Shown here: positions 1,542-6,526 of the stretch, one piece after another
How positions within the stretch are numbered: the first letter of the stretch is position 1
How the letters are laid out: the number at the start of each line of letters is the position of its first letter
Assembly: GCA_964490365.1 (NCBI GenBank)
Contig: CAZBAG010000001.1
Span: forward strand, 56,459-120,458
Length of the DNA: 64,000 nucleotides
Origin: an uncultured Candidatus Saccharibacteria bacterium
GTDB taxonomy: Bacteria > Patescibacteriota > Minisyncoccia > Phycocordibacterales > CSBR16-119
Direction: 5' to 3'
Position numbers and translations under genes: made by a program
Notes under the pieces: generated by a model
Told to the model about the DNA's origin: nothing
The model's database searches: none
What the model saw: only the letters and a program-made list of their open reading frames with translations

Positions 1542-1624
1542 TTATTAGTTAATTATATTTGTATGGCAAAAGGTAACAACGCTCGCAAAAAAGAAACCAA
1601 AAAACCAAAGAAAGTGAAATAAAT

Positions 1625-4859: not shown

Positions 4860-5396
4860 ATGATCACAAAAATAATAGCAGGGGTTTTGGTGTTAGGGAG
4901 TGTTTCTTTTTTTGTTTTTAAAAATGATAAAGCTCCAGCACCTGCTGATACTTCAATAGAAGAATCAGTGCAAGAAAATTCTTCAGAAAGTTTATCAAAA
5001 GACTTCAACGAAAAAACAACATTGGCAAAGCTCGTAGAGAAGGGAGGAAACCACAAATGCACCTTTGGTCACACAACACAAGTTGGCACATCGACTGGTA
5101 CTGTCTATATTTCAGGTAAAAAAATTCGAGGAGATTTTGTAAGTAAAGTATCTATCGCCGAACTCCCAGGTCTTAACGACATTAATTCTTCAATGATCAG
5201 TGATGGGGAATCAATCTATACATGGTCGTCAATGACTCCAGAAGGATACAAAGCTTCGGTTAAACAAGAAACGTCTACGACCACCACACAAACAAATGTT
5301 CCAACTAATCAAGAACTTGATTATAGTTGCACTGCTTGGATGGTTGATGAATCGAAGTTTTCATTGCCGACACACATTACGTTTAAAACAATATAA
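4860..5396 (+). CDS. hypothetical membrane-anchored protein (N-terminal TM, Ser/Thr-rich region)
   Basis: ORF with an N-terminal hydrophobic helix and no recognisable family. Confidence 0.5.
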   Translation: MITKIIAGVLVLGSVSFFVFKNDKAPAPADTSIEESVQENSSESLSKDFNEKTTLAKLVEKGGNHKCTFGHTTQVGTSTGTVYISGKKIRGDFVSKVSIAELPGLNDINSSMISDGESIYTWSSMTPEGYKASVKQETSTTTTQTNVPTNQELDYSCTAWMVDESKFSLPTHITFKTI

Positions 5397-5400
5397 AAGA

Positions 5401-5431
5401 AAAAAGACTTGCATGTTCTGCAGGTCTTTTT
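5401..5431. terminator. bidirectional intrinsic terminator (AAAA-AGACTTGCA-tgttc-TGCAGGTCT-TTTT)
   Basis: 9-bp stem with one wobble, flanked by an A-run and a T-run. It sits between the convergent 3' ends at 5396 (+) and 5439 (-). Confidence 0.7.
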
Positions 5432-5438
5432 GTTTGGC

Positions 5439-5606
5439 TTTATATTACGACGTCCACTTCAACACGTCTTTCTTCGGCAATTGATCTGAGTAGTTGCAGA
5501 GGAAATGGGTGCAGTTGTTTTTTCTTGTTGAGTGGTCCAGTTTTATTTTTCTTTGGAACAATAATGTGCAAACTCGTTCTTGGTTTTTTGCCTGTTGGTC
5601 GCCTCA
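5439..5606 (-). CDS. small basic protein, 55 aa (MRRPTGKKPRTSLHIIVPKKNKTGPLNKKKQLHPFPLQLLRSIAEERRVEVDVVI)
   Basis: Hand-translated. It is under the 60-aa cutoff, so it is absent from the ORF track. It ends at the bidirectional terminator and is divergent from the KA-rich peptide gene across a 270-nt AT-rich spacer. Confidence 0.4.
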
Positions 5607-5873
5607 TGTTATTTTTTTAGTTTTTATTTTAAATCATGTCACAACAAAAGTCATCCTTATGTAATTTTTTTACTTTGAAAAATATTTTTTTAAAAAATAA
5701 AAAAAGTTTTACACAGTTTTTATTTTTTGCTCTATGTTTTTTTTCTAAGAAGAAGTAAAATTTTAGTAACGTTCACTTCAAACAATCTTTCCCTTCAGGC
5801 TTTTGTAAAAGTTTAAAGGAGAACGTAGGTTGATATTATTAGTAGTTTTTAATCACGCAAGTGACTAACTAAC

Positions 5874-5966
5874 ATGGCAAAGAAAAAAGCTGCAAAGAAG
5901 AAAGTAGCTAAAAAAGCTGCAAAGAAAAAAGTGGCAAAGAAAAAAGCTGCTAAGAAGAAGCGATAA
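5874..5966 (+). CDS. 30-aa lysine/alanine-rich peptide (MAKKKAAKKKVAKKAAKKKVAKKKAAKKKR), histone-H1-tail-like low complexity
   Basis: ATG-initiated and built from three imperfect tandem ~25-nt repeats. A terminator follows directly. The poly-F ORF on the opposite strand is its mirror artefact. Confidence 0.4.
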   Translation: MAKKKAAKKKVAKKAAKKKVAKKKAAKKKR

Positions 5967-5986
5967 TTTATCCCACTAACATAGAG

Positions 5987-6010
5987 CCTCGCATGTGCGG
6001 GGTTTTGTGT
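5987..6010 (+). terminator. intrinsic terminator (CCTCGC-atgt-GCGGGG, then TTTTGTGTTTTT)
   Basis: 6-bp GC stem followed by a T-rich tract. Confidence 0.6.
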
Positions 6011-6043
6011 TTTTCTTGTTCTGTTTTTGCTATACTTACAAAT

Positions 6044-6526
6044 ATGGAAACATTTAAATTTATACAAAACGTTTGTACTGTATTAGTTGCATTAGGGGTA
6101 ACATTTTTACTGTTAGGATTTGTACGAGAGCGTGTTGAAGAAACTCCAGCTACGCCAGAAAACATGATTCCTACTGAAGCTGTTTCAGTCGTGAGTACAA
6201 AAGGAGTTGTTATCTATCTTGATCAACCGGCTGAACGTGCTGTCATTACAAGTCCACTTACCATATCAGGAAAAGCACCAGGTAATTGGTTTTTTGAGGC
6301 AAGTGCACCTGTTAGCTTGGAAGATCAAAACGGAAATGTTATCACTGAATCGTATATGACAGCGGAAGGTAATTGGATGACAACAGATCATGTTCCATTT
6401 ACAGGAACCATAACGTTTACACTTTCACCAGGGCTTTCAGAGGGTTACCTAATCTTAAGAAAAGATAATCCATCAGGCGAACCTCAGTTTGATGATGTTG
6501 CAAAAATAAAGATTTTATTCCAGTAA
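6044..6526 (+). CDS. secreted/membrane-anchored protein with a Gmad2-like immunoglobulin-like domain
   Basis: Start set at METFKF, which has an N-terminal TM helix. C-terminal region resembles Gmad2/GerM-type domains; recognised from memory. A TATACT -10 box ends 9 nt before the ATG. Confidence 0.5.
   Translation: METFKFIQNVCTVLVALGVTFLLLGFVRERVEETPATPENMIPTEAVSVVSTKGVVIYLDQPAERAVITSPLTISGKAPGNWFFEASAPVSLEDQNGNVITESYMTAEGNWMTTDHVPFTGTITFTLSPGLSEGYLILRKDNPSGEPQFDDVAKIKILFQ

Follow-up and report, generated by a model that had tools for sequence, protein, structure and literature searches.

A conserved 320-nucleotide unit encoding a 30-residue lysine/alanine peptide at a fixed site in a Paceibacteria-like clade

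Background

Basic tails of the histone H1 type are found at the C-termini of the linker histones H1/H5 and, in bacteria, in Hc1 and Hc2 of Chlamydia, BpH of Bordetella, AlgP of Pseudomonas and the mycobacterial HupB/MDP1 and Ku (PAKKA tails). Tiny basic proteins are also present in ribosomes, namely bTHX (26 amino acids (aa)) and the mycobacterial proteins bS22 and bL37. Patescibacteria have minimal genomes in which a large share of the genes has no known function. Here, we analyze a stretch of 64,000 nucleotides (nt) from such a bacterium (contig CAZBAG010000001.1, positions 56,459 to 120,458; hereafter the window) and focus on KA30, a lysine/alanine peptide of 30 aa, and on the DNA directly around its gene, which an earlier note on this DNA had described as one half of a divergent pair of small basic protein genes.

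The comparison with H1-like tails made here draws partly on portions of PMC2848022 and PMC3553676, and that with the small ribosomal proteins partly on portions of PMC5876184.

Results

Nucleotide-level conservation of the KA30 unit

Loci of relatives, denoted by L numbers, were collected in two ways. Fifteen loci from species-representative genomes were gathered through alignment of the family of the 178-aa protein encoded upstream of KA30, and 20 further loci were obtained by looking up homologues one at a time and by querying with the exact KA30 peptide. KA30 lies between the same two genes in 14 distinct relatives of one Paceibacteria-like clade. Its unit occurs in 14 distinct nucleotide versions, and the exact peptide was found on 22 contigs. 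The gene order in the close clade is constant: an AI-2E transporter, the 178-aa protein, an optional opposite-strand gene resembling that of p55 (a 55-aa protein), KA30 and a Gmad2-domain protein. Homologues of the 178-aa protein are annotated as Patescibacteria or Paceibacterota, in keeping with the patescibacterial origin that had been assumed for the window from its letters.

The unit spans 5692-6012 (about 320 nt) and is composed of an upstream block of 182 nt, the KA30 open reading frame (ORF) and the terminator behind it. The upstream block is 81-93% identical to nine relatives, compared with 60-76% for the flanking genes. Nucleotide identity to relatives is 79-96% in the KA30 ORF and 78-96% in its terminator; the p55 region does not align. 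At the 4-fold degenerate sites of the flanking genes, the window and its relatives are 29-44% identical, which corresponds to saturation. Where a Lys, Ala or Val residue is conserved, the same codon is used in 81-92% of cases in KA30 versus 35-49% in the flanks, an excess that is significant in four of five comparisons (not in that with L011), and within the first 50 nt of the ORF a single site varies, in L011. Such identity against saturated flanks indicates that the unit is constrained as DNA or RNA as well as at the level of the protein, and judged from these alignments, protein coding alone does not account for its conservation. The locus is thereby best described as a single 320-nt unit, conserved like an RNA gene and encoding a 30-residue Lys/Ala helix, and not as a divergent pair.

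KA30 is coding and strongly conserved

The KA30 peptide (MAKKKAAKKKVAKKAAKKKVAKKKAAKKKR; 3.3 kDa, pI 11.7) comprises 17 Lys, 9 Ala, 2 Val and 1 Arg, giving 18 basic residues, no acidic residue and no proline. The ATG at 5874 is the first possible start, since an in-frame TGA is located upstream at 5862-5864. Tandem Repeats Finder reported a repeat at 5881-5959 with a period of 27 nt, 2.8 copies and 80% matches, as well as a period of 15 nt.

The peptide is 100% identical in L004, L021 and L022 and 79-93% identical in L002, L005, L011, L003 and L006, whereas the identity of the neighboring proteins is much lower (41-64% for the 178-aa protein and 69-82% for the AI-2E transporter). ORF lengths in the relatives are 93, 96, 105 and 114 nt (30, 31, 34 and 37 aa). 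Every insertion or deletion (indel) is thus a multiple of three despite the many A-runs, and single-base indels do occur in the non-coding DNA directly upstream of KA30. When the sequences encoding the identical peptide are compared (window, L004 and L021/L022), all variable sites are synonymous third positions. The in-frame indels and the restriction of changes to third positions show that KA30 is coding, and on these substitution patterns we regard it as a translated, strongly conserved, single-copy gene. The only frameshifted copy of KA30 is that of L008 (6539-7450), where the 178-aa gene and the Gmad2 gene are frameshifted too, which suggests an error-prone assembly or decay of the whole region.

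AlphaFold2 predicts KA30 to be a single alpha-helix from residue 2 to 29 (pLDDT 91.7). According to a helical-wheel reckoning, the Ala/Val positions spiral round the predicted helix and lysines occupy all faces, leaving no hydrophobic face. KA30 had no match in Pfam (tried at E <= 1 and E <= 10), NCBIfam, PHROGs or the PDB sequences, nor did the 34-aa and 37-aa variants match any Pfam or NCBIfam model, Hc1 (PF07432) included. A phmmer search of KA30 against all PDB chains, ribosomal chains among them, gave 0 matches at E <= 10. For the 45-aa extended form of L002, a large protein search returned nothing at E <= 0.01, and literature searches yielded no description of such a peptide in Patescibacteria.

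Position and sequence of KA30 had been given exactly in the earlier note, and the gene is a real, conserved one rather than a chance ORF, as it is present at the same syntenic site in all relatives of the clade. The proposed likeness in composition to a histone H1 tail also holds, as KA30 is a Lys/Ala-rich basic repeat. The expected variation in repeat number exists and stays in frame, but it is minor, as most genomes have exactly 30 aa with 100% identity, in contrast to the rapidly changing tails of Hc2 or H1. Membership of an Hc1-type family found no backing: neither KA30 nor p55 has an Hc1, linker-histone or other match in Pfam, NCBIfam, PHROG or PDB.

Two further reading frames at the gene were rejected. 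An antisense ORF over KA30 (5849-6067, minus strand, 72 aa, Phe/Ala-rich) is open in several relatives but in differing frames, and is therefore a by-product of the Lys/Ala codons, not a gene. A TTG located 7 nt after an invariant AAGGAG is in frame with KA30 in nine relatives, in which gene callers report a protein of 45-49 aa with a hydrophobic MILLLVF... extension (for example L002 6987-7124, L003 7034-7183 and L023 4980-5117). In the window, this upstream TTG (5830, behind AAGGAG) is out of frame with KA30, as it is in L004, L005, L011 and L019; the N-terminal extension is hence non-coding and an annotation artefact. The scarcity of Shine-Dalgarno-like motifs in this genome (1 of 63 ORFs) also speaks against this start.

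The upstream block

The block shows an upstream pattern that resembles a promoter. In it, an invariant AAAAAAGTTTTRCACAGTTTT and the sequence CTATG are separated by a variable stretch; more variable sequence comes after CTATG, and from AGTAAAATTTTAGTAACG to the ATG conservation is nearly unbroken. The two arms of the inverted repeat, AAAGTTTTRC (5704-5713) and GTAAAATTTT (5755-5764), are invariant, and the TAAAAT at 5756-5761 within the second arm is a possible upstream -10 element, going by its letters. In the candidate long hairpin downstream of it, ACGUUC would pair with GAACGU, CCUU with AAGG and AGGCUUU with AAAGUUU. Variable positions are confined to its apical loop and internal loop. 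Because 14 of the 17 pairs never vary, covariation says nothing either way. Two of the other three pairs change on one side only, from A-U to G-U. The hairpin includes two G-U pairs that can form in plus-strand RNA only.

The promoter-like site further downstream contains an extended -10 element (5831-5839) of a type that is common 6-10 nt before start codons in the window. From here, transcription would start near 5846, leaving a 5' untranslated region (UTR) of about 28 nt. The small hairpin in this predicted UTR ends 10 nt before the KA30 start codon. Its loop is a GNRA tetraloop (GCAA, GUAA or GUGA) in 13 of 14 relatives, and its stem shows one compensatory change (A-U to G-C, in L006). No Rfam match was found for the block or the unit, either at gathering thresholds, at which the window has two tRNAs only, or at E <= 10; the best sub-threshold match was RsmY, with 23.5 bits against a gathering threshold of 57. 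The 182-nt block may represent either a structured 5' leader RNA or regulatory (protein-bound) DNA, or both; as a leader, 5698-5830 would have to be transcribed from a promoter located further upstream.

As a separate observation, the motif ACUAACAU is common to the 5' UTR of KA30 (GACUAACUAACAUGG, 5864-5878) and its 3' UTR (CCACUAACAUAGAG, 5972-5984), and both copies are almost invariant in relatives. The shared motif could be due to chance in AT-rich sequence or could be a repeated binding site.

Terminators and the start of the Gmad2 gene

The KA30 terminator begins 11 nt after the stop codon of KA30. Its stem is rich in G-U pairs, which makes it specific to the plus strand, and the relatives display two compensatory changes and many changes from A-U to G-U. 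In the hairpin at 5401-5431, the stem has 13 pairs (AAAAAGACTTGCATGTTCTGCAGGTCTTTTT) and is bordered by an A-run and, at its opposite end, by a T-run. The hairpin follows the stop codon of p55 at a distance of 8 nt and that of the 178-aa gene at 4 nt and can end both; an equivalent is kept in L021 and L022. Four terminator-like sites were found in a 1.9-kb stretch versus 1.0 expected.

The Gmad2 gene encodes an Ig-like domain protein according to its family match. It has an extended -10 element, TGcTATACT (6028-6036), 7 nt before an ATG at 6044, and relatives carry a conserved TTTGnTATAAT followed by ATGGAAAC before the gene. With the promoter this close to the ATG, the mRNA is likely leaderless, and the promoter marks the 3' boundary of the KA30 unit. 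The automatically called ORF (5993-6526, plus strand) begins within the KA30 terminator, and the tblastn matches of its homologues start at residue 18. Based on these alignments and on the conserved promoter, the Gmad2 gene most likely starts at 6044, not at 5993.

Across the window, a Shine-Dalgarno-like motif is located within 20 nt of the start in one of 63 long ORFs, and a TGnTAnAAT extended -10 box precedes many ATGs by 6-10 nt (e.g. those at 6044, 27144, 27913, 32139, 37955 and 42447). The rarity of the former and the position of the latter suggest that leaderless or near-leaderless mRNAs are the rule in this genome.

p55 is an optional neighbor

The p55 protein is basic (pI 11.4) and is on record in a 380-kb NCBI contig and in Logan assemblies. 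ORFs resembling p55, of 48-63 aa, are present at the same place and on the same strand in eight other genomes (L002, L003, L011, L022, L031, L034, L035 and L037). The resulting nine-member family shares an N-terminal motif, M-[RK]-x-P-R-x-x-R-P-x-K-K-K-H-x-I-V-P-x-K-P-[RK]-T-G-x-L-N-K-K-K, and has a variable C-terminal half. One of its closest pairs has 11, 13 and 24 differences at codon positions 1, 2 and 3 and a second pair has 5, 8 and 12, and this third-position excess indicates that p55 is probably a real protein.

The gene is absent in L005, L006, L019, L021 and L008, where the gap measures only 30-110 nt, and it is broken in L004. Between L021 (4565-4670) and L022 (4565-4855), the KA units are identical and the flanks nearly so, but an indel of about 185 nt, comprising the p55-like gene together with its promoter region, sets the two apart. 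Its breakpoints are located directly after the terminator of the neighboring gene and directly before the conserved KA block, with no repeats obvious. Since p55 can be present or absent even between near-identical genomes, it forms an optional cassette that is not partnered with KA30. We conclude from these alignments that p55 is a separate, optional, fast-evolving gene for a small basic protein, located in the gap between the neighbor's terminator and the KA30 unit.

In database searches, p55 showed no relatives outside the clade. A word-indexed search of 5.8 billion proteins returned p55 alone, and a full HMMER search of 1.8 billion representative proteins returned p55 and two repetitive proteins. 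Neither the single sequence nor the nine-member profile matched Pfam, NCBIfam, PHROGs or PDB, and the AlphaFold2 model is of low confidence (pLDDT 59). A likeness of the IVPxxxxTG motif to ribosomal protein bS18 was considered and dropped, as the spacing differs and there is no profile match.

Layout of the locus

The coordinates of all features are collected in Table 1. Every element pointed out in the earlier note is there as described, namely the two small ORFs with their terminators, the tandem repeat and the AT-rich spacer. The p55 peptide had been read exactly, with its coordinates (5439-5606) one base off from the correct ones. The spacer (5608-5873) measures 266 nt and has a GC content of 23.3%, in a genome of about 38% GC. 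The suggestion that it holds two divergent promoters is right in that a promoter-like site is present for each ORF; the conservation of the 182 nt next to KA30, however, makes them more than promoters. What does not stand is the functional divergent pair, given that p55 is missing from five relatives and broken in a sixth, and KA30 is found in every relative.

Table 1. Features of the KA30 locus, with positions in the window
Feature	Position	Strand	Basis
178-aa protein gene	4860-5396	+	upstream neighbor of the p55/KA30 region
Symmetric two-way intrinsic terminator	5401-5431	both	terminator scan
p55, 55-aa ORF from ATG	5440-5607, including stop codon	-	ORF
Candidate p55 promoter, ATGACT-17 nt-TAAAAT (putative)	5626-5654	-	consensus scan only
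Conserved 182-nt block before KA30	5692-5873	+	nucleotide identity to nine relatives
Invariant inverted repeat around a variable stretch	5704-5764	+	alignments and RNAalifold outer helix
Candidate long hairpin	5769-5826	+	RNAalifold
Candidate promoter, TTTAAA-16 nt-TG-a-TATTAT	5812-5839	+	consensus scan
Small hairpin, UCAC-GCAA-GUGA	5853-5864	+	RNAalifold
KA30, 30-aa peptide ORF	5874-5966	+	ORF and comparison with relatives
KA30 intrinsic terminator, 15-bp (base pair) stem followed by a U-run	5978-6011	+	scan and RNAalifold
Extended -10 promoter and ATG of the Gmad2 gene	6028-6046	+	sequence and conservation in relatives

Elsewhere in the window, a 19-aa basic ORF (MAKGNNARKKETKKPKKVK, 1563-1622, plus strand) directly follows a membrane-protein gene labelled DoxX_2 (1173-1541) and has its own GC-rich hairpin and T-run at about 1626-1653. 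It is kept as MAKGQQRSNKEAKKPKKPKAK or MADRSQRSNKEKKKPKKVKAK in L003, L004 and L002, and had no Pfam or NCBIfam match. Several mini basic proteins thus seem to be encoded, but unannotated, in this lineage.

Discussion

This work describes a monocistronic-looking unit that has its own promoter-like site and its own terminator and is followed by a gene with a promoter of its own. Our preferred reading of its product, held tentatively and rated slightly below an even chance, is that KA30 is a free-standing polycation of the H1-tail type that binds nucleic acid by charge, with its expression driven by a regulatory region or leader under tight constraint. With 18 basic and no acidic residues on a helix, its chemistry is like that of linker-histone and Hc1 tails, and charge-driven binding of nucleic acid is for this reason taken as the likeliest mechanism. 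As a helix with lysines all round, KA30 would amount to a linker-histone/Hc1-type tail without the globular domain, and its target would most likely be the nucleoid, possibly RNA. The 182-nt block and the conserved synonymous sites would probably serve the tight control of KA30 expression. Proposed control elements are the extended -10 promoter, the GNRA hairpin in the short 5' UTR and, further upstream, the hairpin and inverted-repeat region, which may function within a leader RNA of greater length or else as DNA bound by protein. The label of a nucleoid protein locus, used before for this DNA, remains an analogy drawn from composition.

Several results weigh against this reading. The searches of KA30 in Pfam, NCBIfam, PHROGs and PDB gave no homology to a DNA-binding family. 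The near-frozen length of 30 aa fits a precise binding pocket, for instance on the ribosome, better than a generic polycation, and the known H1-like tails vary fast, whereas both length and sequence of KA30 are almost frozen. Protein function alone leaves the conservation of the synonymous sites and of the 182-nt block unexplained. With z-scores of -0.86 (plus strand) and -1.86 (minus strand), the proposed leader hairpin is of unremarkable stability, and the leader helices are without informative covariation. Finally, the unit is seen in one narrow clade only, and an exact 23-mer of the upstream block occurs in 2 of 241 million metagenome records.

The main rival, kept as such because the frozen length and sequence of KA30 are more like those of tiny ribosomal proteins, is a tiny basic protein bound to the ribosome or to RNA, comparable to bTHX, bS22 and bL37, in which case the upstream block would be an autoregulatory leader mimicking its RNA site. 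We consider this unlikely, albeit a serious contender. Across genomes in which the transporter shows 69-82% identity, the peptide keeps 100% identity and a length of 30 aa, a constancy that is usual for ribosomal proteins of very small size. The unit is monocistronic, and its 5' region, which is long and conserved and includes the candidate hairpin and the GNRA hairpin, resembles ribosomal-protein leaders. The reduced ribosomes of Patescibacteria, as treated in parts of PMC9297842, speak in the same direction. The known tiny ribosomal proteins, however, are not simple Lys/Ala repeats, and none of the PDB ribosomal chains matched at E <= 10. KA30 is also located away from ribosomal genes, its neighbors encoding a transporter, a protein that is secreted or membrane-bound and a protein with a Gmad2 domain, and the leader fold is weak and lacks covariation.

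A bolder and in our view improbable proposal treats the whole 320 nt as an undescribed ultra-conserved element of one Paceibacteria lineage, with constraint on almost all of its nucleotides, either a dual-function RNA or an RNA-protein autoregulatory module, the product of which would be the smallest free-standing histone-tail-like polycation known in bacteria. If it were true, KA30 might replace nucleoid or ribosomal components that are missing from reduced genomes.

Distinctly unlikely, to our judgment, is a transcript of about 320 nt whose main role is that of a riboregulator or of an RNA that is structured or bound by protein, and which also carries the translated Lys/Ala ORF. Such a dual function would explain why the entire unit, including synonymous sites, is conserved at the level of an RNA gene and why the first 50 nt of the ORF hardly vary (one L011 site). 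The G-U pairs tie the helices to the plus strand, and the fold of the whole unit has a z-score of -3.75. Most of that folding energy may nevertheless be supplied by the terminator, with the leader alone being unremarkable and its helices without covariation. Moreover, Rfam offered no match (RsmY, the best, stayed below its threshold), and a single copy was found with no candidate target.

The order of ORF, terminator and gene invites a further reading, in which KA30 is a regulatory leader peptide that senses the supply of lysyl-tRNA or the speed of the ribosome and controls read-through into the Gmad2 gene. Lys codons make up 17 of 30, a ribosome at the KA30 stop would overlie the 5' foot of the stem in the terminator, and the order of KA30 and Gmad2 is kept in 14 of 14 relatives. 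Nevertheless, a conserved extended -10 promoter belonging to the Gmad2 gene itself lies right before its ATG, and in more distant relatives Gmad2 is located elsewhere without KA30; these two findings make a leader-peptide role very unlikely. In addition, neither RNAalifold nor minimum-free-energy folds revealed a conserved alternative antiterminator pairing, a sensor needs no exact Ala/Val positions or KKKR end, and the downstream gene is unrelated to lysine.

The inheritance of the unit bears on the weakest alternative. The unit occurs once per locus, at a fixed site and in a fixed orientation, and was not found elsewhere in the window, also not with a profile hidden Markov model of the upstream block. 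Its divergence parallels that of the flanking genes, L006 and L011 being the most distant in both. This ranking and the constant site make vertical descent under selection likelier than recent transfer, and the comparison points to a unit that is passed down vertically at one site in the Paceibacteria-like clade. Two scans of viral contigs did not find the KA unit, the single match being a chance 18-mer. A small cassette recently spread by horizontal transfer or gene conversion, without selection, would account for the sharp conservation edges at 5692 and about 6012 within diverged DNA, but deserves hardly any credence in view of the constant site, orientation and copy number, the divergence that ranks with the flanks, the lack of terminal repeats and mobility genes and the absence from the viral contigs scanned.

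Whatever its precise function, a 30-codon gene that stays identical while the synonymous sites of its neighbors saturate must serve something central. Its annotation is poor: KA30 is not called in the source genome and carries a false 15-residue TTG extension elsewhere. The example illustrates that comparative scans that take small ORFs into account can recover essential-looking genes from uncultured lineages. As a simple peptide that can be synthesized chemically, KA30 lends itself to the study of nucleic-acid compaction or protection in a reduced bacterium, and the frozen 182-nt block is a candidate for a new regulatory RNA or DNA element.

Comparison with known systems

Ribosomal-protein leaders and cold-shock leaders of the cspA type share with the KA30 unit a long conserved 5' region with candidate hairpins before a small gene that is presumably highly expressed. 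They differ in that the KA30 block has no Rfam match and no covariation support, and a good promoter is located within the block (5831-5839), so that a transcribed leader is only putative. The proteins bTHX, bS22 and bL37 are rich in Arg, Lys and His and are not Lys/Ala repeats, and KA30 matched no PDB chain; on the other hand, they agree with KA30 in size (24-33 aa), extreme basicity, very high conservation within a lineage and in being often missed by gene callers.

With respect to the histone-like proteins, KA30 is without a match to the N-terminal domain model of Chlamydia Hc1 (PF07432). Unlike linker histones (PF00538), the 30-aa KA30 has no winged-helix globular domain and no Pfam match and is predicted to be a single helix; it has in common with them the character of a Lys/Ala-rich, repetitive basic tail, encoded by a 27-nt tandem repeat. 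Compared with H1-like tails in general, KA30 is a whole protein, with no globular or dimerization domain and no proline, and it comes with a 182-nt ultra-conserved upstream block. What it shares with these tails are short, very highly positively charged tandem repeats rich in Lys and Ala and an in-frame, repeat-based variation in length (30-37 aa), and by analogy, charge-driven binding of nucleic acid would be expected of KA30 as well.

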